DNA of 64,000 nucleotides from Thermoanaerobaculaceae bacterium (GTDB lineage Bacteria > Acidobacteriota > Thermoanaerobaculia > Multivoradales > UBA5704): assembly GCA_963717295.1 (NCBI GenBank), contig OY970330.1, forward strand, positions 2,117,902-2,181,901, read 5' to 3'. Positions 1-54,106 of this stretch are shown here, piece by piece (positions within the stretch are counted from its first letter, which is position 1; each line of letters starts with the position of its first letter). Both the position numbers and the translations under genes were made by a program. The notes under the pieces are model-generated. The model searched no databases. It worked only from the letters and a program-made list of their open reading frames with translations, and was not told the DNA's origin.

Positions 1-1080
1 CGAGAAGCTGACATTTCCCGCCGACCAGCGCTCCGGTTCGGGGAGCCATTCGAAGGCGTAGTCCGGGGGGCGAATCCCCTGTTCACCGGCGCGTCCCCAG
101 TCGAAGAACTCCTGCCAGCGCACCGCTTCGAGAAGCGCCTCCGCCGCCTCGCCGGCGCGCCTCGCGAGCGAGCTTCCGGGCGCGCTCCGGCCGGCGATCG
201 GCAAGTGGCGCGAGAGAGCCCCGAGCGCCTCCCGCAGCTCCGCATAGGCGCGGCCGTCGGCCAGGACGCCGACGACCACCCGGTCGCTCCCGGCGAGGCG
301 GCCGAGGAGAGCCTGCCAGACGGCCAGCAGGACCGCCTGCTCGGGAACCGCCAGCCGCCGGGCGGCGGCGGCGATCCGATCGGCGGTCCCGGCCGCGAGG
401 GCGACCAGCAGAACGCAGGGGGAGAAGCCGGCCGCGGGAGTCCGGAGGCCGGGCAGGGCCACCTCGGCCGCGAGCGCCTCCTGGAGATCGGGGGAGCTCC
501 AGCGTTGCGCGCCGACCGAGCCGCCCTCGCCTTCGAAGACCTCGTTCTGCCACTCGGCGATGTCGGCGTACTGCAACGGCCCCTCGTCCGCCGGCGGTCC
601 GTCCTGCCGGCCGTAGGCGTCGACGACCTCCCGCAACAGGTTGATCAGCCCGGGGCCATCGCTCGCCACCGCCGGCAGGGCGACGCCGAGCAGGTGCCGG
701 CCCGGTTCAGGGGAGACGAGGGCGGCGCGCAGCACCGGTCCGGCCGCCAGATCGAAGGGTTCGCGGCAAGCGGCGAGGAGCAGCTCTTCGCCCGCCTGGC
801 GAGCCTCCGGCCGGAGCAGGGAGAACTTCGCCTCCGGTTGGACCACCTGGAGGGGGATCGTCATTCCGGGTAGCGCGTGGAAGGTGGTGCGCAGGACTTC
901 ATGGCGCTCGATCGTCGCGGCGAACGCCGCGGCGAGACGGCCGGGCTCGAGCTCCCCGTCGATGCGCAGCATCGCCCAGGTCGTGAACGCCCCTTGGCCG
1001 AGCTCCGTCATCAGCGCCCAGAGGTGGCGCTGCTGCGGCGAGAGACGGGTGCCGGTCAGGGGCTTGCTCTGCATCGTCAT
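1..1080 (-). CDS. NRPS, N-terminal part (C-terminus outside window); begins with a condensation-like domain whose catalytic motif is degenerate
   Basis: My own reverse-complement translation from ATG at 1080-1078 gives an uninterrupted reading frame to position 1: MTMQSKPLTGTRLSPQQRHLWALMTE...IERHEVLRTTF... (C1 and C2 motifs present). The C3 position reads VALPAVASDGPG instead of MHHxxxDG. It is missing from the ORF track because it runs off the window edge. Confidence 0.8.
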   Translation of the reverse strand, partial: MTMQSKPLTGTRLSPQQRHLWALMTELGQGAFTTWAMLRIDGELEPGRLAAAFAATIERHEVLRTTFHALPGMTIPLQVVQPEAKFSLLRPEARQAGEELLLAACREPFDLAAGPVLRAALVSPEPGRHLLGVALPAVASDGPGLINLLREVVDAYGRQDGPPADEGPLQYADIAEWQNEVFEGEGGSVGAQRWSSPDLQEALAAEVALPGLRTPAAGFSPCVLLVALAAGTADRIAAAARRLAVPEQAVLLAVWQALLGRLAGSDRVVVGVLADGRAYAELREALGALSRHLPIAGRSAPGSSLARRAGEAAEALLEAVRWQEFFDWGRAGEQGIRPPDYAFEWLPEPERWSAGNVSFS

Positions 1081-1092
1081 CGTCGCGCCGCC

Positions 1093-4000
1093 TCAGCCCT
1101 TCTCCTGCCGCCGCTTGAGACCGGTCAAGCTCTGCCGCCGAGCCTGGAGCAGATCCTCCTCCTGAGTCCGCTGACGGACCGCCCAGGCGCCGGCCACCCC
1201 GGCCGCGAGATCGGCCAGGGACCTGCCGGGGTGCGCCTCCGCGAGCCGCAGGAGCGCTTCGAAGCCGGCCGCGAAGCGCTGGATCGTGGCCTCCTCGAAG
1301 AGGTCCGACTTGTATTCGAAAAAGCCGCGCATCCCCTCGGGCGTCTCTCTCATCTCGAGCTTCAGGTCGTGCCGCACGAGGCCGCTGTGGAGATCGATTC
1401 CCCGCATTCTCACTCCCGGCAGCTCCACGGCCGGCAGGGGGACGTTTTGGAGGACGAACCAGACCTGGAAGAGCGGGGTCCGGCTCACGCTACGCTCGGG
1501 CCGCAGAGCGTCGACCACCAGCTCGAACGGGGTGTCCTGATGCGCGAAGGCGCCGAGCGCCACCGCGCGCACCCGCCCGACCAACTCGGCGAAGGTCGGG
1601 TCGCCGCCCAGGTCCGTGCGCATCACCAGGGTGTTGACGAAGAACCCGATCAGCCCCTCGGTCTCGGCCCGGCGGCGGTTGGTGATCGGCGTGCCCACCG
1701 CGATGTCGTCCTGCCGCGAGTGCAGATGGAGAAGCAGCTGAAAACCGGCGAGGAGAACCATGAACAGGGTGGCATCGTGCTGGCGCGCCAAGGTGTTGAG
1801 CCCATCCCGCAGCTCCCTCGCGAGAGTGAAGTGGGACCGCGCTCCACGCGAGCTGGCCCCCTCGGGACCGAGAGGCCGGACCGGCAGGTCGGTGCGCCCC
1901 GGCGAGCCCCCGAGCTGGCGCTTCCAGTAGGCGAGCTGCCCGGCGAGCACCGGCCCGCGGAGCCAGGCCTGCTGCCAAGCCGCGAAATCGACGTACTGGA
2001 AGGCTGGCTCCGGCAGCGGCGAGGGCCGCCCGGCGGCGAAGGCGGCGTAGAGCGGCACCAGCTCGGTCACCAGGATGCCGCGCGACCAGGCATCGCTGAC
2101 GATGTGGTGCATGGTGAAGAGCACCAGGCAGTCGTCATCCTCGAGGTCGACCAGCGCGCACCGCAGCAGCGGCCCTTTCCCGAGATCGAAGGGGAGGGCC
2201 GCCTCGGCCCACGCGAGCCGTACGACCTCCTCCTCGCGCGCGGCCGGAAGCAAGCCGCGCAGGTCGACAACCGGCAGCGGGATGGGACGGGCCGGGGCGA
2301 TCCGCTGCCGCGGCTGGCCTGCGACCACCGGGAAGGTGGCGCGCAGCACTTCCTGCCGGCGCACGATCTCGGAGATCGCGAGCTCCAGGGCGCGCAAGTC
2401 GAACGCACCGCTCACCCGCACGGTCCCGAACACGTTGTAGGCCGGGTTTCCAGGCTCGAGCTGGTCGAGAAACCAGAGCCGAAGCTGCGGCGAGGAGAGC
2501 GGCAGCTCGCCGTTGCGAGGAATCCTGAGCAGGGGCGGCTCCTTCGTCACGGCCCGTCCGCGATCGCCGGGCTCCCCAAGGCCGACGGAGGCCGACGACG
2601 ACCGGCCGGCCGGCGGCGCCGACGCGGGCAGCGCGCCGCCGACCAGCGAGTGCATCAGCTCATGCCCCTCGTCGAGCGCGAAGAGAGGGCGGACGGCAGC
2701 GAAGCCGAGGCCGCCGATCGGACAGATCCCCAGCCCGCAGGCGGGAGCGCCGGCCCGCAGGAGCTGAAGCATCGCCCCGGCTTCGAGCAGGCAGAAATCC
2801 CGCGCGCGCTTTCCGTAGAGCGGCGCGATGGCTCCTGCCTGGGCGATCAGGAAGAGGGAGAAGGCGGAACGCTCGAAGATCGGACGGTTGATGAAATCGG
2901 CATGGATGCCGGGATCGAGCTCGACTCCGGGGGTGAGGGCGACGAGCCGGTGCTCGGCCGGATGGTAGTAGTAGGTCCCGGCCGGAATCCCCTCGACCCG
3001 CCCTGCCTTGACGTGCAAATAGACCTGCACGGGATAGACGCCACCCGCCGAGGGATAGAGGCGTTGCGGGTGATCGCCGGCCGGCAGCTCCCGCAAGCTG
3101 GCGAGGAACCTGCCGAAAGCCCGGTTGAGGATCGGCTCCGCGGCGAAGAACCGCTCGCTGCGGAGCTCCGGCGGTCCGGCGTCGCCTGCCTGCAGGTCGA
3201 GATGCCGGCGCGCGGGATCGGCCGGACGCAGGTCCAGCCGCCGCTCCTTGAAACGCTCGCGCTCTTCCGGATCGGCGACGCTCTCCGGAGACCAGCGCGA
3301 GGCCGCCTCGGGGACGGCCGTCTCCGGACGCTCCTGCGCGTAGAGCCTGGCGAGCCCGGCGACCGTCGGCGTCCGGAAGAACTCCTCCATCGTGGGCCGG
3401 AAGGACAGATCGCGCTCGAGCTGGTTGGAGATGCGAATGAGGTCGACCGAGTTCGCCCCCAGGTCGAGAAGGTTGGCATCCCACTCCACGCGGTCGAAAC
3501 CCAATACCCGTTCGACGATCTGGCGGATCGTTTCAGCCAGGGGAGACCCGGAGCTCGGGCCGCCCGGCACGGCTTCGTGGCGTTGAGTGAGGGGCGGCGG
3601 CAGGGCGCGGCGGTCGACCTTGCCGGTGGCCGACAGCGGCAGGGATTCCAGGAACACGTACGACGACGGCACCATGTAGGCCGGCAGCCTGCCCGCCAGG
3701 TAGGCGCGCAGGCTCTCCTCGCTCTCCTCGACTCCCGGCTCGCCGACCACATAGGCCACCAGGCGCTTGCTCCCCTGCGCCTCGCCCACCGCCGCCACCA
3801 CGCACGAACGCACCGCCACGTGCCGGGACAGCACCGACTCGATCTCCCCGAGCTCGATGCGGTAACCCTGCACCTTGACCTGGAAGTCCTCGCGGCCCAG
3901 GAACTCGATCGTCCCGTCCGGCAGGAAGCGCCCCAGATCCCCCGTCCGGTACAGACGCTCGCCCGTCCGCGGATGCACCAGGAAGCTCGCAGCCGTCCGC

Positions 4001-6678
4001 TCTTCCGCACCCCAGTAACCCCGCGCCACCCCGGCACCCCCAATGTACAGGTCGCCCGGCACCCAGGCCGGGCAGAGCGACAGCGCCTCGTTCAGCACGT
4101 ACATCCGCTGGTTCGACATCGCCCGCCCGTACGGGATGCTCCTCCACTGCGGCAGCACCGTCCCGATCGGGTAGAGGATCGACCAGATCGATCCCTCCGT
4201 CGCGCCCCCCAGGCTCACCACCTCCACCGCGCCCAGACGACGCGCCCGATCGGGCAGCGACAAGGGCAGCCAATCCCCCGACAGCAGCGCCAGACGAAGG
4301 CTCGGCGCCAGAGCGCTACTCCGCGACTCCGCCCAGTCCACCAGCACCTCGAACAACGCCGGCACCGAGTCCCACACCGTCACCCCATGCTCCAACATCA
4401 GCTCATGCCAGCGCCCGGGCTCGCGGGCCGCCCACGGCTCCGGCATCACCACCGCGCCACCCGCCGACAAAACGCCGAAAAGGTCGTACACCGACAGGTC
4501 GAACGACAGCGACGACAGCGCCAGAACCCGGTCCTCGGCGCCCAGACCGAAACGGCGATTGACGTCGGCCACCGTGTTGAGAGCCGCGCGGTGCTCGATC
4601 ATCACCCCCTTCGGCTCACCCGTCGAGCCCGAAGTGAAGATCACGTAGGCCAGGTCCGAGGGCGACTGCGCCGCCGCCAGAGGCGCCCCGGCCGGCTCCG
4701 GACCGTCCTCGACCAGCACCCGCTCGATGCCGGACGGCCAGTCCAGGACGGCGGCCAGGGAAGGCTGCGTCACCGCCACCCGCACACCCCCCAGCGAGAG
4801 CAGTTGGCGCAAGCGCTCACCCGGCACACCGGCCTCGATCGGCAGGTACGCTCCTCCCGACTCCAACACCCCCAGCACCCCCACCACCTGCTCCCACCCC
4901 TTCTCCATCACCACCGCCACCAACTCGTCCGGACGCACCGCGAGGTCCCGCAGGCGAAGCGCCAGAGATCGCGAACGCGCCGCCAACTCGCCGTAGGAGA
5001 GCATCCGCGACCCGGAGATCACCGCCGGCCGCCCCGGCGCCGACGCCGCCCGCGCCAGGAAACCCGAGTGCAGCAGCCCCTCCGGCAACGGCGCCGACGT
5101 CGCGTTGACCGACTCGATCAGCTCTCGATGCCGCGACGACGCCAGCGCCAGCGGCGGCTCCTCCCAAGCCCCCTCGTCTTGCGCCAGACGCTCCAGGAGC
5201 CCACGGTAGGCGGCGAACATCTCGTCCAGCAGGCCGGCCGGAAACAGATCCTCCACCGCGTCCCAGTTGAAACCGAGAGCGCCCCCCTCCTCCATGACCC
5301 GGTGGTCGAGCCACACCTGCGGGGTCTGCGAGATGCTGTAGACGTTGTCGGCCACCAGCAGGCTCGTCGTTTCAGCGGCCCCCTGCCCCTCCTGGCCGAG
5401 CGTGCTGGTGAACACCACCGGCATGCGCCCTCCCGCGGCGTTGCCGGCCCGCCGGGCGAGCTGGCGCAGAACCTTGACGCCGCTCACGTAGCTGTATTCG
5501 AGATCGCTCCAGAGCTGCTGCTGGAGGGTGCGAGCGCGCTGGCGGAAGGTGTTCGCCGTGACGTCGACGACGAGGAGCACCGTGGCCGAGAAGTCCCCCA
5601 TGATGGCGTTGACCTGCGGGTGGAGCGGCAGCCGGTTGAACAGCGTGAGGTTCAAGACGAACCGGGGGCTCTTGCACCAGGTGGCGAGGACGTTCGAGAA
5701 CGCCGCCAGCAGCAGGCCGGACGGGGTGAGCCCCTCGCGCCGGGCGGCGGCCTTGAGCGCTCCCCAACGCGCCGGATCGAGCCGCCCGAGGTGACGGGTG
5801 AAGACGGGCTGCTTGATGGTTCCAGGATCTCTTGCGAGCGGCAGTTGGGGCGGCCCCGGAAGGTTGGCCAGCCGACGCTCCCAATGCGCCTCCGCCTGCC
5901 GGTAGCGCTCGCCGCCATGGAGGGCCTTCTCCGCCAGCACGTAGTCGCGGAACGACAGTTCCAGCGAGGGCAGCTCGAGGGCTGGATCGCCGTAGAGCTT
6001 GAACAGCTCGCCGAAGAAAATCTGGAAGCTCCAGGCATCGCCGATCAGTAGATCGAGGCTCAGATGCAGGCGCGTGCGGCCCTCCTCGAAGCGGGAGGCA
6101 CGGATCTCGAACAGTGGCCAGCGATCGGTCGCGAGAACCTGATGCGAGAGCCGGTCGCGCAGCTCGCCCCGGCGGGCCTCGGCCGCGAGGGCCGGCACGC
6201 CGTGGAGCTCGAGCACCTCGATGCCGTAGCGCGGCACCTCCGGCAGGATGCGTTGCTGCCCGTCGTCGCCCACGATCATGCGCAGCATGCCGTGCCGTAG
6301 GATGAGCTGGTTCAGAGCCTGCTCCAGGCGCGCCAGATCGAGATCCTGGAAGTCGAGCTCCAGATAGAAATGCGGCGCCACGTTGCCGAGCTCGAAATCG
6401 CCGCGGCGCCCGATCCAGTAAGCCTGCTGGAGATCGGTCAGCGGGAAGGGGAGGTGCCGCTCGTGCGGCACCGGAACGATCCCCGGCAGGCTCGCGGCCC
6501 GCGTCCCCGGCTCGACCTCGAGCAGCGCCACGATCTCGGCCTTGCGCCGGCTGAGCTCGTCGCGCAGCACCGAGGTCAGCACTCCCTGGGGGGCGTTCAA
6601 GCGCAAGCGGCTTCCTTCGGTCCAGATCTGGACATCGAGGCCGCGCAGTTGAGCGACGAAATCGGCGGTCGACGTCAC
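1093..6678 (-). CDS. NRPS module Cy-A(Cys)-PCP-Ox-C (heterocyclization, adenylation, carrier, FMN oxidase, C-terminal condensation domain)
   Basis: Cy motifs FPLTDLQQAYWIGR and DLLIGDAWSF. A domain LAYVIFTSGSTGEPKGV with FDLSVYD (Stachelhaus D-L-Y) and SLGGATEGSIW, a Cys-type code. PCP LGANSVDLIRISNQL. Nitroreductase-like Ox (YPSAGGVYPVQVYL...GLGICPIGG). C domain with MHHIVSDAWS. Its start overlaps the upstream gene's stop by 4 bp. Confidence 0.9.
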   Translation of the reverse strand: MTSTADFVAQLRGLDVQIWTEGSRLRLNAPQGVLTSVLRDELSRRKAEIVALLEVEPGTRAASLPGIVPVPHERHLPFPLTDLQQAYWIGRRGDFELGNVAPHFYLELDFQDLDLARLEQALNQLILRHGMLRMIVGDDGQQRILPEVPRYGIEVLELHGVPALAAEARRGELRDRLSHQVLATDRWPLFEIRASRFEEGRTRLHLSLDLLIGDAWSFQIFFGELFKLYGDPALELPSLELSFRDYVLAEKALHGGERYRQAEAHWERRLANLPGPPQLPLARDPGTIKQPVFTRHLGRLDPARWGALKAAARREGLTPSGLLLAAFSNVLATWCKSPRFVLNLTLFNRLPLHPQVNAIMGDFSATVLLVVDVTANTFRQRARTLQQQLWSDLEYSYVSGVKVLRQLARRAGNAAGGRMPVVFTSTLGQEGQGAAETTSLLVADNVYSISQTPQVWLDHRVMEEGGALGFNWDAVEDLFPAGLLDEMFAAYRGLLERLAQDEGAWEEPPLALASSRHRELIESVNATSAPLPEGLLHSGFLARAASAPGRPAVISGSRMLSYGELAARSRSLALRLRDLAVRPDELVAVVMEKGWEQVVGVLGVLESGGAYLPIEAGVPGERLRQLLSLGGVRVAVTQPSLAAVLDWPSGIERVLVEDGPEPAGAPLAAAQSPSDLAYVIFTSGSTGEPKGVMIEHRAALNTVADVNRRFGLGAEDRVLALSSLSFDLSVYDLFGVLSAGGAVVMPEPWAAREPGRWHELMLEHGVTVWDSVPALFEVLVDWAESRSSALAPSLRLALLSGDWLPLSLPDRARRLGAVEVVSLGGATEGSIWSILYPIGTVLPQWRSIPYGRAMSNQRMYVLNEALSLCPAWVPGDLYIGGAGVARGYWGAEERTAASFLVHPRTGERLYRTGDLGRFLPDGTIEFLGREDFQVKVQGYRIELGEIESVLSRHVAVRSCVVAAVGEAQGSKRLVAYVVGEPGVEESEESLRAYLAGRLPAYMVPSSYVFLESLPLSATGKVDRRALPPPLTQRHEAVPGGPSSGSPLAETIRQIVERVLGFDRVEWDANLLDLGANSVDLIRISNQLERDLSFRPTMEEFFRTPTVAGLARLYAQERPETAVPEAASRWSPESVADPEERERFKERRLDLRPADPARRHLDLQAGDAGPPELRSERFFAAEPILNRAFGRFLASLRELPAGDHPQRLYPSAGGVYPVQVYLHVKAGRVEGIPAGTYYYHPAEHRLVALTPGVELDPGIHADFINRPIFERSAFSLFLIAQAGAIAPLYGKRARDFCLLEAGAMLQLLRAGAPACGLGICPIGGLGFAAVRPLFALDEGHELMHSLVGGALPASAPPAGRSSSASVGLGEPGDRGRAVTKEPPLLRIPRNGELPLSSPQLRLWFLDQLEPGNPAYNVFGTVRVSGAFDLRALELAISEIVRRQEVLRATFPVVAGQPRQRIAPARPIPLPVVDLRGLLPAAREEEVVRLAWAEAALPFDLGKGPLLRCALVDLEDDDCLVLFTMHHIVSDAWSRGILVTELVPLYAAFAAGRPSPLPEPAFQYVDFAAWQQAWLRGPVLAGQLAYWKRQLGGSPGRTDLPVRPLGPEGASSRGARSHFTLARELRDGLNTLARQHDATLFMVLLAGFQLLLHLHSRQDDIAVGTPITNRRRAETEGLIGFFVNTLVMRTDLGGDPTFAELVGRVRAVALGAFAHQDTPFELVVDALRPERSVSRTPLFQVWFVLQNVPLPAVELPGVRMRGIDLHSGLVRHDLKLEMRETPEGMRGFFEYKSDLFEEATIQRFAAGFEALLRLAEAHPGRSLADLAAGVAGAWAVRQRTQEEDLLQARRQSLTGLKRRQEKG

Positions 6679-9600
6679 AGCTCGATGTCCTCCCGCGGCC
6701 CCTCGCCGGCGGACCCCGCGGGCTCCTCCTGGAAGGGCTCCCAGGCGGCCGACGCCCCGATGCGCCCGCCGAGCAGCGAATGGAGCGGAACGTGGGTGTC
6801 GGCGAGGGCGAAGTGATGGCGGACGCGCGCGAAGTCGACGGCGCCGATCGGACAGAGGCCGATCTCGCAGGCCGGCGCCGCGAGCATCAGCAGTTGCCCC
6901 ATGTAGCCCGCTTCGAGGAGGCTGAAGTCACGGCCCGCGCGGCCGTACATCGGCGCCACCGCCTGGGCCTCGGCGATCAGGAAGAGCGCGAAGGCCGCCT
7001 CGTCGTAAATCGGGCGGTTGATGAACTCGACGTAGATGCCGGGATCGATCTCCGCGCCCGGCGCCAGGGCGACCAACCGGTGAGCGGCCGGATGGTGGTA
7101 GTAGACGCCCCCCTCCAGTCCCTCGACCCGCCCAGCCTTCGCGTAGAGATAGGTCTGGACCGGGTAGAGCCCGCCGGCTGACGGGTAGAGCCGCCGCTCG
7201 CCATCGGGCTCGGCGATCCGGCGGAGCACTCCCAGCAGGCTGGCGAGATCCTGCCGGGGGATTGGCTCGGGACTGAAACGGCGATAGCTGCGGCGGGTTG
7301 CGAGGAGCGCCGCGAGAGCTCCTTGCCCGTCGCCGGGCACCGCGAGGTCGAGGCTCCGCGTTCCGGACGCGTCCGCGCGGAGCCCCAAGTCGCGCTCCTT
7401 GAACGCCGCGCGCTCCGCCGGATCGAGCAGCAGCCCGAAGCGTGTCCAGGCGGACTCGACGGGATCGACCGGCGCGCTCACCGGGGCCGGCGGGGGCGCG
7501 GCCAGGCGTGCCTCGTAGTAGCCCACGACGCTCCGCGGCGTCGAGAGGCGGAACAGCTCGTCGATCGTGGGGCGTGAGCCGAACTCGATCTCGAGCAGAT
7601 TGGCCACCCGGACCATCTCGATCGATGTCGCACCGAGATCGAAAAGGAGGACGTCGGGGTCGAGGAGCTCGGTCTTGAGCACGGAACCGATCACCGCGTA
7701 GACCCGCTCGGCGAGGTTGGAGCCGCCGGGCTGAGCGCCCGGCACGGCTTCGTGGCGTTGAACGAGGGGCGGCGGCAGGGCGCGGCGATCGACCTTGCCG
7801 GTGGCCGACAGCGGCAGGGATTCCAGGAACACGTACGACGACGGCACCATGTAGGCCGGCAGCTTGCCCGCCAGGTAGGCGCGCAGGCTCTCCTCGCTCT
7901 CCTCGACTCCCGGCTCGCCGACCACATAGGCCACCAGGCGCTTGCTCCCCTGCGCCTCGCCCACCGCCACCACCACGCATGAACGCACCGCCACGTGCCG
8001 GGACAGCACCGACTCGATCTCCCCGAGCTCGATGCGGTAACCCTGCACCTTGACCTGGAAGTCCTCGCGGCCCAGGAACTCGATCGTCCCGTCCGGCAGG
8101 AAGCACCCCAGATCCCCCGTCCGGTACAGACGCTCGCCCGTCCGCGGATGCACCAGGAAGCTCGCAGCCGTCCGCTCTTCCGCACCCCAGTAACCCCGCG
8201 CCACCCCGGCACCCCCAATGTACAGGTCGCCCGGCACCCAGGCCGGGCAGAGCGACAGCGCCTCGTTCAGCACGTACATCCGCTGGTTCGACATCGCCCG
8301 CCCGTACGGGATGCTCCTCCACTGCGGCAGCACCGTCCCGATCGGGTAGAGGATCGACCAGATCGATCCCTCCGTCGCGCCCCCCAGGCTCACCACCTCC
8401 ACCGCGCCCAGACGACGCGCCCGATCGGGCAGCGACAAGGGCAGCCAATCCCCCGACAGCAGCGCCAGACGAAGGCTCGGCGCCAGAGCGCTACTCCGCG
8501 ACTCCGCCCAGTCCACCAGCACCTCGAACAACGCCGGCACCGAGTCCCACACCGTCACCCCATGCTCCAACATCAGCTCGTGCCAGCGCCCGGGCTCGCG
8601 GGCCGCCCACGGCTCCGGCATCACCACCGCGCCACCCGCCGACAGAACGCCGAAAAGGTCGTACACCGACAGGTCGAACGACAGCGACGACAGCGCCAGA
8701 ACCCGGTCCTCGGCGCCCAGACCGAAACGGCGATTGACGTCGGCCACCGTGTTGAGAGCCGCGCGGTGCTCGATCATCACCCCCTTCGGCTCACCCGTCG
8801 AGCCCGAAGTGAAGATCACGTAGGCCAGGTCCGAGGGCGACTGCGCCGCCGCCAGCGGCGCCCCGGCCGGCTCCGGGCCGTCCTCTACCAGCACCCGCTC
8901 GATGCCGGACGGCCAGTCCAGGACGGCGGCCAGGGACGGCTGCGTCACCGCCACCCGCACACCCCCCAGCGAGAGCAGTTGGCGCAAGCGCTCACCCGGC
9001 ACACCAGCCTCGATCGGCAGGTACGCTCCTCCCGACTCCAACACCCCCAGCACCCCCACCACCTGCTCCCACCCCTTCTCCATCACCACCGCCACCAACT
9101 CGTCCGGACGCACCGCGAGGTCCCGCAGGCGAAGCGCCAGAGATCGCGAACGCGCCGCCAACTCGCCGTAGGAGAGCATCCGCGACCCGGAGATCACCGC
9201 CGGCCGCCCCGGCGCCGACGCCGCCCGCGCCAGGAAACCCGAGTGCAGCAGCCCCTCCGGCAACGGCGCCGACGTCGCGTTGACCGACTCGATCAGCTCC
9301 CGATGCCGCGACGGCGCCAGCGCCAGCGGCGGCTCCTCCCAAGCCCCCTCGTCTTGCGCCAGACGCTCCAGGAGCCCACGGTAGGCGGCGAACATCTCGT
9401 CCAGCAGGCCAACCGGGAACAGATCCTCCACCGCGTCCCAGTTGAAACCGAGAGCGCCCCCCTCCTCCATGACCTGATGGTCGAGCCACACCTGCGGGGT
9501 CTGCGAGATGCTGTAGACGCTCTCGACCGTCAGAGCGTCGATGTCCCCCGTGGCCCCCTGCCCCTCCTGGCCGAGCGTGCTGGTGAACACCACCGGCATG

Positions 9601-10766
9601 CGGGCTCCCGCTCCGTCGCCCCGAACGCGAGCGAGCTCGCGCAGCAACTGCACGCCGCTCATGTAGCTGTGCTCGAGATCCCGCCAGAGCTGCTCCTGAA
9701 TCTCGCGGAGCGTCTGCCGGAGGGGCGCCGCCAGGTCGACATCGACCGCAAGCAGGTTGAGAGAGGTGAAGTCGCCGACCACCTGATTGACCTCGGGGTG
9801 GAGAGGCAGGCGGTTGAACAGTGTGAGATTCAAGGTGAAGCGTGGGCTCCGGCTCCAGGTGGCGAGCACCGTCGCGTAGATCCCGAGCAACAGGCCGGAG
9901 GGAGTCAGGCCGAGATGAGTGGCCCGCGTCTTGAGGCGCGACCAGCGCCCGGCATCCAGGGTGGCGCGCCGGCGCGCGAAGCGGGGATCGGCGAGCGCGG
10001 CGCCGCCGCTGCGCTCCAGCGGCAACTGAGGCGATGGCGGGAGCTCGGCCAGGCGCGCCCGCCAGTACTCCAGGGAACGCCGGTGAGGCTCGGAGTTACG
10101 GAGCGCCCGCTCGGCGAGCACGTAGTCGCGGAAAGAGAGCTCGAGCGGCGCCATGTCGGCCGCGGGATCCTGATAGAAGACCGCGAGATCGCCCAGCAGC
10201 AGCCGGAAGCTCCAAAGGTCCGCGATCATGATGTCGAAGCTGAAGTGCAAGCGGACCTTGCCGCCGTCGAGCAGCGAGGCCCGGATCTCGAACAGCGGCC
10301 AGCGGTCGGCGGGAAGCACCTGGTGCGACAGCTCTTCCCGCATCGCGGCGAGGTGCGCCGCGGCCTCCCGCGGATCCCGGCCGCGCAGGTCGGTCGCCGG
10401 CACCGTGAACGGCGGCACCTCGGGGAGGATCCGTTGTGACCCGTCCGCCAGGAAAACCGCGCGCAGCATGTCGTGGCGATCGATCAGCCGGCGCCAGGCC
10501 TGCTCGAAGCGGACGATGTCCAACTCCCCGCTTTCGAACTCCATATAGCTGTGGGCCGAGACGTGGCCCAGCTCGATCCCGCTCTGACGTCCGATCCAGT
10601 AGGCCTGCTGGATGTCGGTCAATGGGAACGGCAGATGCCGATCGCCGGGCGCCGGCACGACTTGCGAAAAACGGCCGCCGTCGGACGGCTTCCTGCCCAG
10701 CCGTTGGGTCAGCAATCTCAGCTTCTCGGGAGAGAGCTCCGCGATACGACCTGAGAGGTCAGTCAT
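6675..10766 (-). CDS. NRPS module Cy-A(Cys)-PCP-Ox (thiazole-forming)
   Basis: Cy motifs FPLTDIQQAYWIGR and DIMIADLWSF. The A domain is near-identical to that of 1093..6678 (DLY / SLGGATE Cys code). PCP FDLGATSIEMVRVANLL. C-terminal SagB/McbC-like FMN oxidase (YPSAGGLYPVQTYL...EIGLCPIGA). 4-bp overlaps with both neighbouring genes. Confidence 0.9.
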   Translation of the reverse strand: MTDLSGRIAELSPEKLRLLTQRLGRKPSDGGRFSQVVPAPGDRHLPFPLTDIQQAYWIGRQSGIELGHVSAHSYMEFESGELDIVRFEQAWRRLIDRHDMLRAVFLADGSQRILPEVPPFTVPATDLRGRDPREAAAHLAAMREELSHQVLPADRWPLFEIRASLLDGGKVRLHFSFDIMIADLWSFRLLLGDLAVFYQDPAADMAPLELSFRDYVLAERALRNSEPHRRSLEYWRARLAELPPSPQLPLERSGGAALADPRFARRRATLDAGRWSRLKTRATHLGLTPSGLLLGIYATVLATWSRSPRFTLNLTLFNRLPLHPEVNQVVGDFTSLNLLAVDVDLAAPLRQTLREIQEQLWRDLEHSYMSGVQLLRELARVRGDGAGARMPVVFTSTLGQEGQGATGDIDALTVESVYSISQTPQVWLDHQVMEEGGALGFNWDAVEDLFPVGLLDEMFAAYRGLLERLAQDEGAWEEPPLALAPSRHRELIESVNATSAPLPEGLLHSGFLARAASAPGRPAVISGSRMLSYGELAARSRSLALRLRDLAVRPDELVAVVMEKGWEQVVGVLGVLESGGAYLPIEAGVPGERLRQLLSLGGVRVAVTQPSLAAVLDWPSGIERVLVEDGPEPAGAPLAAAQSPSDLAYVIFTSGSTGEPKGVMIEHRAALNTVADVNRRFGLGAEDRVLALSSLSFDLSVYDLFGVLSAGGAVVMPEPWAAREPGRWHELMLEHGVTVWDSVPALFEVLVDWAESRSSALAPSLRLALLSGDWLPLSLPDRARRLGAVEVVSLGGATEGSIWSILYPIGTVLPQWRSIPYGRAMSNQRMYVLNEALSLCPAWVPGDLYIGGAGVARGYWGAEERTAASFLVHPRTGERLYRTGDLGCFLPDGTIEFLGREDFQVKVQGYRIELGEIESVLSRHVAVRSCVVVAVGEAQGSKRLVAYVVGEPGVEESEESLRAYLAGKLPAYMVPSSYVFLESLPLSATGKVDRRALPPPLVQRHEAVPGAQPGGSNLAERVYAVIGSVLKTELLDPDVLLFDLGATSIEMVRVANLLEIEFGSRPTIDELFRLSTPRSVVGYYEARLAAPPPAPVSAPVDPVESAWTRFGLLLDPAERAAFKERDLGLRADASGTRSLDLAVPGDGQGALAALLATRRSYRRFSPEPIPRQDLASLLGVLRRIAEPDGERRLYPSAGGLYPVQTYLYAKAGRVEGLEGGVYYHHPAAHRLVALAPGAEIDPGIYVEFINRPIYDEAAFALFLIAEAQAVAPMYGRAGRDFSLLEAGYMGQLLMLAAPACEIGLCPIGAVDFARVRHHFALADTHVPLHSLLGGRIGASAAWEPFQEEPAGSAGEGPREDIEL

Positions 10767-13700
10767 AGGGCTCCGTTTCCTTCGGCATAGGCCGGGTCCT
10801 CGAGCTCCGCCAGCACCTCGAGAAGCTCCGCATTGTCGACCTGGTCGGTGATCAGATGGACGATCAGCTTCGCCAGCTCCGCGATCGTCGCGCCGACGAA
10901 GAGGCGGCTGAGCGGCACCTCGATCTGCAGCGTCTCGCGCAACCGCGAGGCCAGGTCGATCGCCAGCAGCGAATGCCCGCCGAGCTCGAAGAAGTTGTCA
11001 TGGACTCCGATCTGCTCGATGCCCAGCATCTCTTCCCAAAGGCCGGCCAGCATCTGCTCGAGCTCGCTCGACGGCGCTCGATAGGAGACCCCGACGTTGG
11101 GGCGCGGATGCCGGGTTCCTGGCGCGGCGGCTCCGGTGCGCCGGCCGGCCTCGCCGGCGCTCGCCGGCGGCCGCGCCTGCTCGCGGATCAGGGTCTCGAG
11201 GTCGACGCCCGAGACGACGATCTGCGGCCCGGCACCGCTGGCCAGGGCGCGCGCGAAGGCCTCGATCCCCTCGGCCGGCCGGATGGCGCGGCCGGTCACC
11301 GGCCCTTCGGCGGCCGGCCGGTCCGTTGCGGCGGCGGCGCGCGGCGGCGTGGCGACGTCGACCTTGCGAGCGGTGAACTCCTCGACTTCGACCAGCACCT
11401 CTCCGCTCTCGGTCAGCAGGGCGATCTCGAGCACCGCCGTATCCCCGGCCGAGAGGGCTGCGTCGACGCGAAAGTGCGCCAGCAGGCGCCGCGTGAGCGG
11501 CGCGTGCTGCCGCAGCCGCCCGTAGGAGAGCGGCAGGTAGCCCGCACGGCCGGTGAGCAGCAGACCGCACGCCGTAGCGACGTCGAGCAGCGCCGGATGC
11601 AGCCCGAAGACAGCGAGATCGCCGGCGAATGCCGGCGGCAGCTCGAGGACCGCCAATCCCTCGCCGTCGCCGACGCAGCCCTCGCGCAGCACGTCCCAGC
11701 GCGGCCCCCAGAGAGTCAGCTTCCCGCCCGCCCGCCGCTCCACCGGCAAGTCGACCACCGCGCAGCGCGCGCGAATTGCCGCCGGCTCCCGGCGCGCCGG
11801 CGCCGGACCGTCGAAGGGGAGGGCGCGGCCGGTGGCGTGAAGCCGCCAGCCTTCCCCCTTTCCATCGCGGCTGGTAATCCTGAAGGTCAGCTCCCCCGCG
11901 TGCTCGGCGAGCGCCGTGCGCACCTCCGCCTCCTCCCCCTCATCGACCGCCAGGGGGGAGAGAAAGACCGCCTCCCGCAGCTCGACGCCGGTCCCGGGCC
12001 GCTGCGCGGCTACGGCGGCCCGCGCCATTTCGAGGAGCGCCGTGCCGGGGAGGACGGGACGGCCCATCAGCCGGTGCTCGGCGAGCACCCAGTGGCGAGC
12101 TGGGGAGAGACGGAGAGCCGTCTCCATGCCGCCCCCCTCGCCGAGCAGCGGGCTCGACTCGAGGGAGGGCGCCCCCGGACGCTCCGGGCGCGCGCCGAGC
12201 GACATGCCGGTACCCTCCCAGCCATACCAGTCGAGCGCGAGAACGCTCGGCCCGCCGCGGGCCGAGCGCCAATGGGCGAAGGCGTCCAGGAAGGCATTGG
12301 CGGCGACATAGTCGACGCGCCCCAGGCCGCCGGTGATCCCGAAGGTCGACGAGAACAGGGCGAAGAAGTCGAGCGACTCACCGGCGAGCAAGGCATCGAG
12401 CACCAGAACGCCCTTGACCTTGGGGTCCAGCACAGGGCTCATCCTCTCCGCGGTCTGGCGCAGGAGCAGGCCGCCTCCCGCCGCGCCCGCGGCATGAAGA
12501 ACGCCGTGGAGGGGACCGAATCGCCGCCTGGCCTCGGTCAGGACGGCGCCCAGGGCCGCCTCGTCCGTGACGTCGGCGCTCGCCACCATGACCTCGGCGC
12601 CGGCGGCCTCGAGCTCGAGGAGCTGCCGCACCTGCTCGCCCAACGGGCCTGGGTCGTCCTGCCAGAGAGGCCAATCCCCGCGGGGCGGGAAAGCGGAACG
12701 GCCGACTAGGACCAGCCGCGCCGCGAGCTCACGCGCGAGGTATCCCGCGAAGATGAGGCCGAGCCCACCCATACCGCCCGTGATCAGGTAGGTCCCACGT
12801 TGCCGGAACGGCGGCCGCTCCGCGGCGGGGAGAGGCGCGGGCTCGAACGTCTGCACCCAACGATGGGGCCCGCGCAGGGCCACCGGCGCCCCGGGGTCGA
12901 GAGCCGAGAGCTCGGCAAGCAGCCGCGCGGCACCGGCCTCCTCCCCTCTGCCCGGTGCGGGCGAAACCACGTCGATCACCCGGCAAGCCAGCCCAGGCAG
13001 CTCCTGCGGTATGACCTTGGCGGGACCGAGCACCAGCGCCGCGGCCGGCGAGAGGGGCTCGCTCCCGTCCACGTCGAACAGTCCGCTCACCACCACGCTG
13101 AGCGCCACCCGCGCCTCCCCGCTCCGCCCCGCCAGGGCTTGGGCGAGATGCAGGAGACTGTAGAAACCGAGCGTCTCGAGCTCTTCGACAGCCTCCCGAT
13201 CGGCCCTCCCCGCCGCCTTGGCACCCGTCGCCCAGAGGTGGACGATGCGAACCAGCGCCCCACCCGCCAGCGGGAGCTCGCCGAGCAGCGCCTGGTAATC
13301 CTCCAGCCGGCGCGGGGAAAGCTCATAGGCGCCCTCGCCACGGCGGGCGAAGGCCACGCCGGGAGCCACGGTCACCACCGCCTCGCCGCGTTTTGCGAGC
13401 TCGTTGGCGAGATCACCGCCGAGACCGCCGCCGGACACGAAGAGCAGCCAGAGGCCACCCCCACCGGTGGCCAGTGCCGGCGCCGGCCGCGGCAGCCGCT
13501 TCCATGACGGGACATAGAACCAATCCGCCAGATCGGATTTGCGGCCGGCCGGGGCGGGAGCATTCGCCGGCGCGGCGGCGGCCTTTCTCTCCACCCAAAA
13601 GCGGCGGCGCTCGAAAGCGTAGGTTGGCAGCGGCACCCGGCGTCGCGACACCGGCCCTTGGAAGGCCTTCCACTCGGGCTCTACGCCGTTGGTCCAGAGC

Positions 13701-16253
13701 CGTCCGAGGGCGTTGAGCAGGGCCCGCTGCTCTTCTCCGGGCTCCCGGCTCTCGGGGAGCGAGGCCACCACCGGCCAGGCGGTGGGCACGGCGGGGTGGT
13801 TGCGCGCCAGGGTGAGCAGGGTACGCCCCGGACCGACCTCGAGCAGCGCCGCGTGCTCGAGTGTCGCGAGTGTCGCGAGGCCGGCCGAGAAGCGGACAGG
13901 GTGGCGCAGGTGGCTGACCCAATAGGCGGGGTCGGTGGCTTCCTCGGGCCGGATCCAGGCGCCGGTGAGGTTCGACACCCAGGGCAGCTGCGGGGACCGC
14001 AGGCGGATGCGGGCGAGCTCCTGGCGGAACGGCTCGAGGATCGGCTCCATCATCGCGGAGTGGAAAGCGTGCGAGGTGCGCAGACGCCGGCACCGGACCC
14101 CCCGTCCGGAAAGCGTCGCGGCGAGCTCCTCGAGGGCGTCGACGGGGCCGGAAACCGTCGACAGCAAAGGCGCGTTCTCGGCGGCCAGAGAGAGCCGGCC
14201 GCCGAGCAGCGCAGCCACCTCGGCGGCGGGGAGCGGTACGCTCAGCATGCCGCCCGGAGGCAACCGCTGCATGAGGCGTCCGCGCGCCGCGACCAGCGCC
14301 AGCGCATCCTCCAGCGAGAGCGTGCCGCCCAGGCAGGCCGCCACGTACTCGCCCACGCTGTGCCCGAGCATCGCCCGGGGCCGCACCCCCCAGGCGATCC
14401 ACTGCTCCGCGAGCGCGTACTCGACGGCGAACAGGGCGGGCTGCGCGAGCTCGGTCTCCTCGAGACGGGCGGCGGCGTCCGCGGCGTTCGACCCGTCAGA
14501 CCCCGCGCCGGGCTTCAGAAGCCGCCGCAGGTCGAACCCCAGCGATGGAGTGAGGATCTCGGAGCAGCGGTCGAAAGCCGCGCGGAAGACGGCCTCGCCA
14601 GGATAGAGGCCGCTCCCCATCTCCAGGTACTGCGCCCCCTGGCCGGGGAAGAGGAAAACGACCGGCGTGCCGGCCTCGCCGCCGATGCCTTCGATCACCC
14701 GCTTCGGATCGAGCGCGGTGAGCGCCGCCGTCGCCTCGGCGCCGCTCGCGCAAACCACCGCTCGGCGGTGCGCGAAGGCGGAGCGCCCCACCTGCAAGGT
14801 CCAGGCGACGTCGGCCAGAGCGAGCTCTGGGAGGGCGCGCAGATGCTCGGCCAGCCGATCGCTGTTGGCGGCGAGGGCACCGGCGGTCTTGCCCGAGGTC
14901 ACGAGGAGCTGCAGCGGCCGGACGGCCGGGGCGGTGGGCGCGGCGGACGGCGCCTCCTCGAGGACGACATGGGCGTTGGTTCCGCCGATCCCGAAGGAGC
15001 TGACACCGGCGCGCCGCACTCCCTTCCCGGCCGGCCACGGCCGCAGCCCGGCGTTGACGAAGAATGGGCTGGCATCGAAGTCGATCTCGGGGTTCGGGCG
15101 CTCGAAGTGGAGGCTCGGCGGCAGCCAGCCGTGCCGCAGCGCGAGCACGGTCTTGATGAGGCCGGCGATACCGGCCGCGGCGTCCAGGTGCCCGATACCG
15201 GTCTTGACCGATCCCAGGGCGCAGAAACCGCGCTTCTCCGTGCTCGCCCGGAAGACGTGGGTGAGCGCGCTCACCTCGATCGGGTCGCCGAGCGGTGTGC
15301 CGGTGCCGTGCGCCTCGATGTAGCTGATCGACTCGGGGTCGACCTCGGCCATGTCGAGCGCCTCGGTGAGGACGGCGATCTGGCCGGCGGAGCCGGGTGC
15401 CGTGTAGCCCGCCTTCAAGGAGCCGTCGTTATTGACCGCCGAGCCGCGAAGGACGGCGAGAATCGTGTCGTTGTCGGCCAGCGCTTCGTCCAGACGCTTC
15501 AGGACGACGAGACCCAGGCCGCTGCCGAAGACGGTTCCGCCGGCGCGGCTGTCGAAAGCACGGCAGTGCCCGTCGGGCGACAGGATTCCGCCCGGCTCAT
15601 ACAGATAGCCGCCGCGTCCCGGCGGCTTGACGGAGGCGCCCCCCGCCAAGGCGAGGTCGCACTGGAAGTCGAGCAGCGCCTGGGAGGCCAGGTGAACGGC
15701 GACCAGCGAGGTCGAGCAGGCCGTCTGGACTCCGATGCTCGGCCCCTTCAAGCCCAGCTTGTAGGAGATCCGCGTGCTCAAGTAGTCCTTGTCGGCGGCG
15801 ACCGTGAGCTGCAGCGACGACACCGATCGCACGAGATCCGGGTCCGACAGGATGTTCCGCAGCAGGTAGTGATTGATGCCGCAGCCGGCATAGACACCGA
15901 TCGAGCCCGGGAAGCGCGAGGACACGTAGCCGGCGTTCTCGAGCGCCTCCCAGGCGCACTCGAGGAGGAGACGGTGCTGGGGGTCGGTCAGCTCCGCCTC
16001 ACGCGGGTTGATGTCGAAGAACTCGGCGTCGAACAGCTCGACGCCGTCGATCCGTGACTCTGCCCGCACGAAATGGGGGTCACGCAGCCGGTCGGGCTCG
16101 ACCCCTGCCTGGGCCGCCTCGTCCTCCGACAGGAACGTGATCGCTTCGACCCCGTCCTTGAGGTTCTGCCAGAACTGGTCGAGCGTCGGCGCCCCGGGGA
16201 AACGCCCCGACATGCCGATCACCGCCACGGCGGGCGCGGAGCGGGGGGCCGTC

Positions 16254-16267
<14 letters not shown>
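10763..16267 (-). CDS. Type I PKS module KS-AT(malonyl)-KR-DH-ACP
   Basis: KS motifs GVQTACSTSLVAVHLA, EAHGTGT, GSVKTGIGHLD. AT GHSVGEY plus HAFHS (malonyl signature). KR Rossmann GTYLITGGMGGLGL with YVAANAFLD. Hotdog DH motif HRLMGRPVLPG located after the KR. ACP LGGHSLLAIDL. Confidence 0.9.
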
Positions 16268-38222
<21,955 letters not shown>

Positions 38223-45825: not shown

Positions 45826-46518
45826 ATGAACACGGCAACCCGGCTGGTCTCCTCGCTCGGCTACGCCCTCTGGCGCCCCGTCCTGCGCCGGCGGCTGGGC
45901 CGCGTCTCGCTCGAAGAGATCGACGGCGTAGTTCTCATGGTGCTTCCCGAGGTCTTCAATCCGGCCGTCTATCGCACGGGCACGCTGCTGGCCCAGGCGG
46001 TCGCGGCGTGGACGCCTCCCGACGTCAGGCATTGTGAGGACATCCGGGTCCTCGACGTGGGAACGGGCAGCGGGGTCGGCTCGGTGTTCGCCGCCCGGCG
46101 GGGATTTCGGGCCGTGGCGGTAGACGTCAATCCCGAGGCGGTACGGTGCGCCCGGATCAACGCCCTTCTCCACCACCTGGAAGAACGGATCGACGTGCGG
46201 CAGGGCGACCTCTTCTCCCCGGTGGCCGGCGAGCGCTTCGATCTCGTGCTGTTCAATCCCCCCTTCTTTCGCGGCGAGCCAGCGGGCGATCTCGATCGGG
46301 CCTGGCGCGGCACGGATGTGCTGGAGCGCTTCGCCGCCGGCCTTCCCGAGGCCTTGAATCCGGACGGCACCGCTCTCCTCTGCCTGTCGACCGATGGCGA
46401 CGGCGACGCTCTGCTCGCCCGGCTGAGAGACGGCGGGTTCGGGATCGAGACGGCTGTCCAGCAAGACTTCGCCAATGAGATCGTCACCGTCCACGCGGTG
46501 CGAAGGACGGCGGCGTGA
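45826..46518 (+). CDS. Class I SAM-dependent methyltransferase (HemK/PrmC-like, NPPF motif)
   Basis: VLDVGTGSGVGSVFAA (motif I) and DLVLFNPPFF. 4-bp overlap with the next gene. Confidence 0.7.
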   Translation: MNTATRLVSSLGYALWRPVLRRRLGRVSLEEIDGVVLMVLPEVFNPAVYRTGTLLAQAVAAWTPPDVRHCEDIRVLDVGTGSGVGSVFAARRGFRAVAVDVNPEAVRCARINALLHHLEERIDVRQGDLFSPVAGERFDLVLFNPPFFRGEPAGDLDRAWRGTDVLERFAAGLPEALNPDGTALLCLSTDGDGDALLARLRDGGFGIETAVQQDFANEIVTVHAVRRTAA

Positions 46519-48020: not shown

Positions 48021-48063
48021 TCCTGACCGGCGAATCCGCCGGAAACACGACACCGCTCCCCCC

Positions 48064-48262: not shown

Positions 48263-48284
48263 GCTGCGGTCGGCCTCCGGGATT

Positions 48285-53048: not shown

Positions 53049-54106
53049 GCGCTTCCTTCCCGTAGCGACAAAGAGCAGACACAGCGCCGGCAGATGGGAT
53101 CGCGCGCCGTGTCGAGAGTCTGGCGCCACGAGATCGCGGCCGGCGAGTTGAGAATCGCGCCCAGGCTCTCCGCATGCCTCACGTTTCCCAGCGGCGGCTG
53201 GAAGAAACAGGGGCGCACGGAGCCGTCCGCCTCGACGACGGCGGAGACCCAGGGGGCATTGCACTCAACAGGGGCGAAATCGCCTTCGGCGAGCAGGGCG
53301 GCGAAATGACGCAACAGCCGGCGCCCGAGCTTCTCCGGGCTCTCGGCGATGAAACCGCTCGCGAAGTCGGCGGCGCGCTCGATCGTCAGGGCCTCCAGCT
53401 CCGCGGCCAGAAGGGGCAGATCCTCACGGCGGAGCGCGACCTCGGCGGCGCGGTCGTCGCCCCAGCCGCCGGGACGGTTGAAGGCTTCGCTGGTGACGTC
53501 GGCGGCGAGGAAGCTCAAGCGGTCGAGCCCAAGCTCGTGGGCGGCTGCCACGGTCGCCCGCAAAACGTGGAAGTTCGGCCGCTGCACCGTGCAACGGCCG
53601 GAGACGGCGATGCCGGGACCGGCGGCGCGCACGGCGGCGACGCCCTGCGCCAGGCGGTCATAGGCACGAGGAACATCGCGGATGAGATCGTGAACCTCGC
53701 GGGGGCCGTCGAGGCTGACGACGACATCGTCGCAGACTCGGGCGAGCGCCGTGGCATCGCGGGCGAGGAGCAGGCCCGTCGAAAGGATGGTGATGCCGAT
53801 GCCCGCGTCGTGGAGATGGGCGCAGAGGTCCCAAAGATGGCTATGGAGCAGGGCCTCGCCGCCCGAGAGCACCACCCTTCGGACGCCCAAAAGCTGCCAC
53901 TCCCCGAGCCAGCGCTCCACCTCGGCCGCCGAGATCTCCTCCCGTCCCTTGTCGCGCCAGATGTCGCACATCAGGCAGCGGCAGTTGCAGCGGCTGTGAG
54001 GGTAGAGGATCAGGATGGGCAGCCGGGTCACCGGATCTTCGCGAGGCAGCGCCGGGAGAACGGGCGCGGCGACCTCCGGTCTGGGGGCGGGAGCGAGGAC
54101 CGTCAT
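53045..54106 (-). CDS. Radical SAM protein with C-terminal SPASM/twitch-like Cys cluster
   Basis: CNCRCLMC near the N-terminus (start MTVLAPAP...). C-terminal CNAPW...C...CRRCVCS. ATGA overlaps on both sides. Confidence 0.7.
   Translation of the reverse strand: MTVLAPAPRPEVAAPVLPALPREDPVTRLPILILYPHSRCNCRCLMCDIWRDKGREEISAAEVERWLGEWQLLGVRRVVLSGGEALLHSHLWDLCAHLHDAGIGITILSTGLLLARDATALARVCDDVVVSLDGPREVHDLIRDVPRAYDRLAQGVAAVRAAGPGIAVSGRCTVQRPNFHVLRATVAAAHELGLDRLSFLAADVTSEAFNRPGGWGDDRAAEVALRREDLPLLAAELEALTIERAADFASGFIAESPEKLGRRLLRHFAALLAEGDFAPVECNAPWVSAVVEADGSVRPCFFQPPLGNVRHAESLGAILNSPAAISWRQTLDTARDPICRRCVCSLSLREGSA

Follow-up and report, generated by a model that had tools for sequence, protein, structure and literature searches.

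The window analysed here, a stretch of 64,000 nucleotides, carries on its minus strand an NRPS assembly line whose last visible subunit, g5, extends beyond position 1 of the window. The subunit before it, g4, closes with an intact C domain, and g5 opens with a domain of the same superfamily from which both catalytic histidines have gone. The features needed below, all on the minus strand, are these:

1..1080, minus strand: g5, the next NRPS subunit, with an N-terminal domain of the C superfamily lacking both catalytic His, assigned below to the interface (I) type
649..678, minus strand: LPAVASDGPG, which occupies the HHxxxDG active-site position in alignments with ordinary C domains
1018..1044, minus strand: LSPQQRHLW, the C1-type motif, retained in the g5 domain and typical of its family (SPQQ+xLW)
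1081..1092, minus strand: intergenic gap between g4 and g5, 12 nt, read from the sequence
1091..1094, minus strand: GAGG, 10 nt upstream of the g5 ATG
1093..6678, minus strand: g4, 1861 aa, with a TubC_N dock, Cy, A, T, a nitroreductase-type Ox and C
1096..1209, minus strand: g4 C-terminal tail, 38 aa after the C domain (…RQRTQEEDLLQARRQSLTGLKRRQEKG)
1210..2511, minus strand: g4 C-terminal C domain, intact and LCL-like (Pfam, aa 1390-1823, E 1.3e-126)
2083..2109, minus strand: HHIVSDAWS, the catalytic motif of the g4 C domain, intact in the sequence
6675..38222, minus strand: upstream assembly line g1-g3 from domain calls, comprising g1 (FAAL-ACP-(C-A-T)x5-Cy-A(Ox)-T), g2 (a PKS module) and g3 (Cy-A-T-Ox)

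The A domain of g4 has a Cys-like code (DLYSLSLIWK). Read from its motifs, the C-terminal domain of g4 is a canonical LCL condensation domain with C1-C5 intact, HHxxxDG included; it carries LSSPQLRLWFLDQ, MHHIVSDAWS and IGFFVNTLVMR, and scores 557.7 bits against an HMM of ordinary C domains versus 211.1 bits against the HMM of the I family. An intact C domain at the end of this gene, as the preliminary description had it, is thus borne out both by MHHIVSDAWS and by the Pfam match. Looked up as an exact protein, g4 gave no match with either V or M as its first residue. Beyond the assembly line, the 38-64 kb part of the window contains a kinase gene, a beta-lactamase gene and radical-SAM genes. 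No TauD was found anywhere in the 64-kb window, and no P450 among the scanned ORFs, which in the 38-64 kb part were a portion of those present.

The g4 stop codon (TGA) lies at 1095..1093 and the g5 ORF starts with ATG at 1080..1078, both on the minus strand, so that the two genes are separated by 12 nt and not by the 10 bp first reported. The GAGG at 1091..1094 is likely the ribosome-binding site of g5 and, together with the short gap, suggests that g4 and g5 are translationally coupled. Since the g5 ORF crosses the window edge at position 1, its visible part amounts to 360 aa, about 80% of the domain. This part matches Pfam Condensation (PF00668, E 1.2e-32, profile positions 7-327 of 456) and, in agreement with the initial reading of normal C1 and C2 motifs, retains both LSPQQRHLW and IERHEVLRTTF. 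As LPAVASDGPG aligns with HHxxxDG, both histidines are missing from the g5 domain, and misalignment, which had been named as one way in which the reported loss could prove wrong, is not borne out.

A frameshift or sequencing error, the other suggested way out, does not account for the loss either. A metagenome contig (L082), independently assembled and 97.3% nt-identical to window positions 1..3739, has VALPAVASDGPG together with an intact 1979-aa ORF; this agreement, and the fact that the substitution is clade-wide, mean that the loss of the histidines is no artefact. An exact 45-mer from the start of the window was absent from the metagenome collection. In L082 the counterpart of g5 is organised as I-A(Asp, DLTKIGHVGK)-T-E-C, and it is followed by a standalone TauD gene and then by a second subunit, I-A(Asp)-T-C; the TauD gene lies 4.9 kb downstream of the g4-g5 junction, before the second I domain. 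From this relative we infer the architecture I-A(Asp)-T-E-C for g5 in the present cluster. Given a window free of TauD and a junction gap of only 12 nt, it is also this relative, and not the window, on which the link to a hydroxylase rests.

Two profile HMMs, one for the I family and one for ordinary C domains, were trained without window sequences, and the g5 domain scored 321.5 bits against the former and 146.0 bits against the latter. In an exhaustive profile search, the domains at 224-702 bits were all N-terminal and all carried (L/M)P(A/S)LCxD, the family consensus at the His-motif position; every other domain scored 196 bits or less, including two weaker N-terminal ones (192 and 176 bits). 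P136 and D141 are invariant in a 17-sequence alignment (A3), A137 only in a 4-sequence alignment (A2), and the 17 members share 22 invariant columns at about 35% identity among them. In a neighbour-joining tree the g5 domain falls within a monophyletic clade of TauD-linked domains, with a long branch to ordinary C domains; its placement among I domains is by proxy, with the TauD-linked relatives and the homology to CcsL (see below) standing in for reference I domains. More than 580 occurrences of the family were found in the GTDB species representatives, spread over Acidobacteriota, Cyanobacteria, Chloroflexota and other phyla, and the closest match to the g5 domain among these representatives is 43% identical. 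Between the window and the 97% relative, dN/dS is 0.36 for the g5 I domain, which indicates purifying selection, and 0.23 for the intact C domain next to it.

General resources were less specific. NCBIfam returned only generic NRPS matches for the g5 domain, and the best sequence matches in a PDB profile search were ordinary C domains, with no solved I domain among them. The AF2 model of the 360-aa partial domain reached a pLDDT of 69.6, with a poorly modelled C-lobe, and Foldseek matched it to generic C domains at TM 0.45-0.53, all matches belonging to the C superfamily; the model would thus seem to say no more than 'C fold'.

The genomic context of the family was sampled in 79 loci with 96 family domains, using the 4-sequence alignment as the query of the locus scan, since the 17-sequence alignment was too diverse. 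The family domain is the N-terminus of its protein in all 96 cases, and the preceding protein, where upstream sequence is visible, usually ends in T-C. That the two domains lie on separate polypeptides throughout makes the earlier term 'C-C0 tandem' misleading: this is a junction between subunits, of the published interface-domain type. A TauD-family Fe/alpha-KG dioxygenase (PF02668, E 1e-45 to 1e-54) stands immediately upstream in 65 of the 96, and where the upstream C domain is visible the TauD is fused to it in 16 cases and a separate gene in 36. Fifteen of the 96 junctions (~16%), that of the window among them, have no adjacent TauD, and nine of these 15 have none within 10 kb; they were not found to form a subclade of their own but are scattered over the tree. 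The A domains that follow (78 members) mostly carry the Asp code DLTK[IV]GHVGK, and codes for Asn, His, Gln and Glu also occur. With or without TauD, the upstream C domain is followed by a conserved tail, for which an alignment of 51 upstream-protein tails gave the consensus …ELxEASRQKLKxVKRKAV. The g4 tail resembles this consensus and was the best match when a tail HMM was run on the six-frame translated window, at an E value of 0.056, which is suggestive of membership of this tail type but not significant.

Interface domains of the NRPSs for beta-hydroxyaspartate/histidine siderophores were reportedly described by Reitz et al. (2019, PNAS 116:19805), and interface-domain profiles are included in antiSMASH 8. 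Like the Reitz-type domains, the g5 domain belongs to the C superfamily, has lost the catalytic His motif and follows a C domain, and the sampled family shares with them a position directly N-terminal to A(Asp)-T and a beta-hydroxylase of the TauD type, whether fused or standalone. Unlike them, the g4-g5 junction has no hydroxylase between its subunits, the sole TauD (in L082) lying one subunit further down, and the sampled clade comes mainly from Acidobacteriota and Cyanobacteria, whereas the Reitz type belongs to proteobacterial siderophore clusters.

Two characterised pathways offer closer points of comparison. In that of myxoglucamide, MxgA (…ACP-C-Ox) precedes MxgB (I-A-PCP), the LCL C domain of MxgA performs the condensation in trans, and coupled hydroxylation and condensation did not depend on the I domain of MxgB in vitro (PMC13638107). 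The junction studied here is alike in that an intact LCL C domain closes g4 and an I domain opens g5, with an A-T pair predicted after it from L082. However, the C domain of MxgA is followed by a fused dioxygenase and the substrate there is Glu, whereas g4 lacks such a fusion and Asp, judging from L082, would be the substrate; moreover, MxgB is described as being without the second His, whereas the g5 domain has both replaced (LPAV…). In the cyanochelin B pathway, CcsL (BAU16061) comes after CcsK (BAU16062), a standalone Asp beta-hydroxylase (PMC12628792); both are encoded on plasmid 2 of Leptolyngbya sp. NIES-3755 (AP017310.1). The N-terminus of CcsL is 34% identical to the g5 domain over 90% of the length of the latter, and CcsL shares with the L082 counterpart of g5 this homologous N-terminal domain, Asp specificity, an E domain and a standalone TauD-type hydroxylase. 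The gene order differs, as the CcsK gene lies directly before CcsL whereas the TauD gene of L082 comes after g5 and before the next I-domain subunit.

The preliminary description had offered a recruitment, X-type or docking domain; recruitment and docking pointed in the right direction, but the X-type label does not hold. The glycopeptide X domain (PDB 4tx2, 4tx3) is, like the g5 domain, a dead member of the C superfamily, and it is found among the fold matches of g5. However, X domains sit after the last T and before TE and recruit P450s to the carrier-bound substrate, whereas the g5 domain is N-terminal in its subunit, before an A domain in L082, and the scanned ORFs offer no P450 partner. 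Nor is the X domain its nearest relative, being the closest neither by sequence nor by fold, with no special Foldseek similarity. A starter C domain was also rejected. Such domains are N-terminal, keep an intact HHxxxDG and acylate the first amino acid; the g5 domain has no His motif, and its subunit stands in mid-pathway, preceded by a T-C protein.

We therefore regard it as likely that the His-less domain of g5 is a non-catalytic interface domain of the known type, with the C domain of g4 acting in trans and the I domain serving as a scaffold or recruiter for a subunit whose Asp is hydroxylated by TauD. The I domain would take the structural place of the module's own C domain, and the A-T pair of g5 would load an Asp destined for beta-hydroxylation. 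The C-terminal C domain of g4 would then join the thiazolyl-acyl chain carried by the g4 T domain to Asp or beta-OH-Asp loaded on that of g5; by analogy with MxgA, it is the probable catalyst of this peptide bond in trans. The I domain would probably keep the two subunits together and offer the Asp bound to the T domain to an Fe(II)/alpha-KG hydroxylase of the TauD type. The candidate for this enzyme is the standalone gene that follows g5 shortly beyond the window edge and precedes the second I-A(Asp)-T subunit. As this single TauD gene lies before the second I subunit, one enzyme may serve both Asp modules. Recruitment by I domains is in itself putative, given that the MxgB domain could be dispensed with in vitro.

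A role as a docking scaffold between subunits only, independent of any hydroxylase, would make the pairing with the upstream C domain and its basic tail the primary function and the TauD link secondary. It would suit the N-terminal position in 96 of 96 cases, usually after a T-C protein where visible, the 15 junctions without TauD between the subunits, the one in the window included, a tail that is conserved irrespective of TauD, and an MxgB I domain that is not needed for hydroxylation in vitro (PMC13638107). We nevertheless find this distinctly unlikely: TauD is placed exactly at the junction in 65 of 96, the A codes match residues that are beta-hydroxylated, the TauD-less members form no clade, L082 does encode a TauD 4.9 kb downstream, and the g4 tail match falls short of significance. 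A related and wider idea can be entertained tentatively, as a minor but real chance, namely that I domains are a general inter-subunit junction device that receives the upstream C domain with its basic tail (…QKLKxxKRKxV), with hydroxylase recruitment as an option. The window junction, along with ~16% of those sampled, would then represent a 'bare' form, and the first Asp module would either use the one downstream TauD or go without it.

That the domain is a decaying, functionless remnant of an active C domain after gene splitting or recombination, as had also been proposed, might be read from the loss of both histidines with an intact C domain directly adjoining. This is effectively refuted by a conserved clade with its own motifs and 22 invariant columns in 17 members despite ~35% identity, its recurrence over several phyla, a dN/dS of 0.36 and an ORF that is intact in two independent assemblies. 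Non-canonical catalysis by residues outside the His motif (e.g. dehydration, epimerisation or acyl transfer) could draw on the invariance of D141 and several other positions and on the precedents of MxgH and CmodAA, atypical C domains with new activities (PMC13638107). It is nonetheless very improbable, as the family motif has neither a His nor another obvious general base in place of HH, no product feature calls for such an activity, and the published in-vitro work found the I domain not to be required (PMC13638107).

On the favoured reading, 'interface domain' is the annotation that the His-less domain should receive, in place of 'inactive C domain' or 'pseudogene', and the C domain that closes g4 should be counted with the module that follows. 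The I domain of g5 probably flags an Asp residue that is beta-hydroxylated and, because an E domain is present, probably D-configured; taken together with the FAAL start and the three modules that form thiazoles, it points to a lipopeptide metallophore-like product. The g5 domain adds to the published I-domain family and is nothing new in kind, the loose end being a junction without a hydroxylase of its own. I domains are widespread outside Proteobacteria, always at a protein boundary in our survey, and a sizeable minority of their junctions lack their own hydroxylase, which bears on what I domains do.

The window has a G+C content of about 70% and carries a hybrid NRPS/PKS assembly line on the minus strand, running from 38222 to 1 through four genes (g1 to g4) into a fifth, g5, that leaves the window after 360 codons:

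16254..38222, minus strand: g1, 7322 aa, FAAL-ACP-(C-A-T)x5-Cy-A(Ox)-T
10763..16267, minus strand: g2, one PKS module
6675..10766, minus strand: g3, Cy-A-T-Ox
1093..6678, minus strand: g4, TubC_N docking domain, Cy, A, T, Ox, C

The A domains of the three Cy modules (the last of g1, g3 and g4) have Cys-like codes, DLYNLSMIWK and DLYSLSLIWK, so three thiazoles are predicted. Two placements of the nitroreductase-type Ox occur within this one cluster: downstream of the T domain in g3 and g4, and embedded in the A domain of the last g1 module, where it separates A8 from A10. By Pfam coordinates g2 is ordered KS-AT-(psi-KR)-KR-DH-ACP, an unusual arrangement with the dehydratase after the ketoreductase. 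A 1724-aa open frame antisense to g4 (877-6051, plus strand) can almost certainly be put down to the high G+C, since all the NRPS domains sit on the sense strand. The cluster boundary shows as a step in G+C at about 38-46 kb, with values of about 0.71 before it and about 0.65 after it, and the region from 38 to 64 kb contains a Ser/Thr kinase, a beta-lactamase and several radical-SAM genes:

43545-44657, plus strand: serine beta-lactamase-family gene, in the cluster flank
46515..48020, plus strand: radical-SAM gene with a B12-binding domain
48647-51325, plus strand: Ser/Thr protein kinase with PD40 beta-propeller repeats, in the cluster flank
51627..53264, minus strand: radical-SAM gene with a B12-binding domain
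53045..54445, minus strand: radical-SAM gene with a SPASM domain
54867..56252, minus strand: radical-SAM gene with a B12-binding domain

The radical-SAM group (46515-56252) lies outside the NRPS cluster and may be a separate peptide-modification locus.

The preliminary description had reported an intact C domain followed, across a gene boundary, by a C-like domain without its histidines. Indeed, g4 ends in a full C domain (aa 1390-1823) with the usual motifs, MHHIVSDAWS among them. Its stop codon (TGA, 1095..1093) is followed by 12 nt containing GAGG, rather than the 10 first stated, and then by the g5 start codon (ATG at 1080). The g5 fragment matches the Pfam Condensation domain (E 1.2e-32) with good C1 and C2 motifs, and reads LPAVASDGPG at the HHxxxDG position, so that the original observation was correct. 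The same type of substitution is found in the three closest database proteins (LPALCAD, LPALCSD and MPALIAD). Scored against HMMs built from other genomes only, the g5 domain reached 321.5 bits with the C0 (histidine-less) clade versus 146.0 with ordinary C domains, the opposite of every other C domain in the window.

The g5 domain and the three closest database proteins were combined into a profile for an exhaustive search of 1.8 billion representative proteins, with matches re-scored per domain. About 30 domains scored 224-702 bits; each lies at the start (residue 1-20) of a multi-modular NRPS protein and carries (L/M)P(A/S)LCxD. The usual layout of these proteins is C0-A-T-C…, many of them closing with a C domain. 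The remaining domains all score at or below 196 bits, and HHxxxDG is kept in all internal C domains; two proteins carry borderline N-terminal members, P0036 (192 bits) and P0103 (176 bits, motif IPSIYGD).

A genome scan found more than 580 relatives among GTDB species representatives. We examined the loci of 78 of these and one from a protein look-up, annotated with custom HMMs for C, A, T, C0 and TauD; most are from Acidobacteriota (Pyrinomonadaceae, Thermoanaerobaculia, Blastocatellia) or Cyanobacteria, and Chloroflexota, Binatia and others supply the rest. All 96 C0 domains recovered stand at a protein start, the upstream in-frame stop lying a median of 16 and a maximum of 185 codons away, and the protein before them, as far as visible, nearly always has T-C at its end. 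Exactly between the subunits, 65 of the 96 have a dioxygenase of the Fe(II)/alpha-KG-dependent TauD family (about 350 aa; PF02668, E 1e-45 to 1e-54); where the upstream C domain is visible, it is fused to the C-terminus of that domain in 16 cases and a separate gene in 36. A direct C-then-C0 junction lacking TauD, as in the window, occurs in 15 of the 96, of which six still have a TauD not more than 10 kb away. The A domains after C0 mostly have Asp codes (DLTK[IV]GHVGK), the others including codes for Asn, His, Gln and Glu. In one locus (L001, 10001-12787) and in protein P0077 the order is I-C-A-T after a T-C protein, placing the I domain between two catalytic-looking C domains. The g5 domain lacks the catalytic histidines, belongs to a TauD- and Asp-linked clade found always at a subunit start, and follows an intact C domain.

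This arrangement is an already published interface-domain architecture. In myxoglucamide biosynthesis, MxgA (…ACP-C-Ox) precedes MxgB (I-A-PCP); the MxgA C domain is of the LCL type with HHxxxDG and performs chain extension, its Ox is an alpha-KG dioxygenase through which PCP-bound Glu is beta-hydroxylated, and the C-like domain at the N-terminus of MxgB, without HHxxxDG, falls among the interface (I) domains described by Reitz et al. 2019 (PMC13638107). Profiles for interface domains and their beta-hydroxylases were added in antiSMASH 8 (PMC12230676). With 34% identity over 90% of its length, the g5 domain also matched a protein in the plasmid collection, at the N-terminus of BAU16061 (Leptolyngbya sp. 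NIES-3755 plasmid 2), whose gene has the TauD gene BAU16062 directly before it. In the cyanochelin B cluster (PMC12628792), BAU16061 is CcsL, which is specific for Asp and includes an E domain, and BAU16062 is CcsK, an Asp beta-hydroxylase that stands alone. The g5 domain very probably adds a member to this established domain family, at a junction of a type already described.

No TauD gene was found anywhere within the 64-kb window. A metagenome contig (L082, Ga0134125_10000305), with 97.3% DNA identity to window positions 1..3739, extends beyond the edge:

Fifth gene, 1979 aa: I-A(DLTKIGHVGK, Asp)-T-E-C
L082 8609-9631: standalone TauD gene, after the fifth gene
Sixth gene: second I domain, then A(DLTKVGHVGK, Asp)-T-C

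In the fifth gene the E domain carries HHLAIDAVSW, EGHGRE and RTVGWFTS, the final C domain carries HHLLIDGWT, and the end is a basic tail typical of the family (…DDSLLQKFKSARRRAVS…). The TauD gene and second I-A(Asp)-T-C subunit occupy L082 8609-13717. This layout implies that the cluster contains a hydroxylase one subunit further down, off the window, and has two interface-domain junctions with apparently one hydroxylase. In L069, L080, L035 and L001, too, the first I module lacks TauD and the junction after it carries one.

The original interpretation of the histidine-less domain was partly right: of the roles offered, one of the recruitment or docking type fits these data, and a remnant and an X domain are rejected. 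A decaying remnant does not fit the I-domain dN/dS of 0.36 between the window and L082, although the counts are small, with 12 differences each at synonymous and non-synonymous level; for the intact C domain beside it, dN/dS was 0.23, from similarly small counts (21 and 14). An AF2 model of the 360-aa partial domain (pLDDT 69.6; N-lobe good, cut C-lobe poor) retrieved only C-superfamily structures with Foldseek (TM 0.45-0.53), and an X domain, the other suggestion, was not preferred among them; a search by sequence found no solved I-domain structure.

By analogy with MxgA and MxgB, the g4 C domain would make the bond in trans, joining the thiazole-containing chain on the g4 T domain to Asp or beta-OH-Asp on the g5 T domain. 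The I domain may retain a C-A-type platform for its own A domain, and its contact partner may be the hydroxylase, the upstream C domain with its tail, or both. That tail, a conserved basic motif in the 30-60 aa following the C domain of the upstream proteins (L003-L080; consensus …ELKEASRQKLKNVKRKAV), is kept with fused and standalone TauD alike and also where there is none, and may be a docking peptide. The g4 tail (RQRTQEEDLLQARRQSLTGLKRR; 1096-1209, minus strand) is the best match in the whole window, weak at E 0.056, and is a lead rather than a finding. One TauD probably hydroxylates both Asp modules, in which case the module with the E domain would yield D-beta-OH-Asp. Recruitment is a putative role even for I domains in general, since MxgB did not need its I domain in vitro (PMC13638107). 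What remains of interest in this cluster is the hydroxylase missing at the g4-g5 junction, and its bearing on the primary role of I domains.
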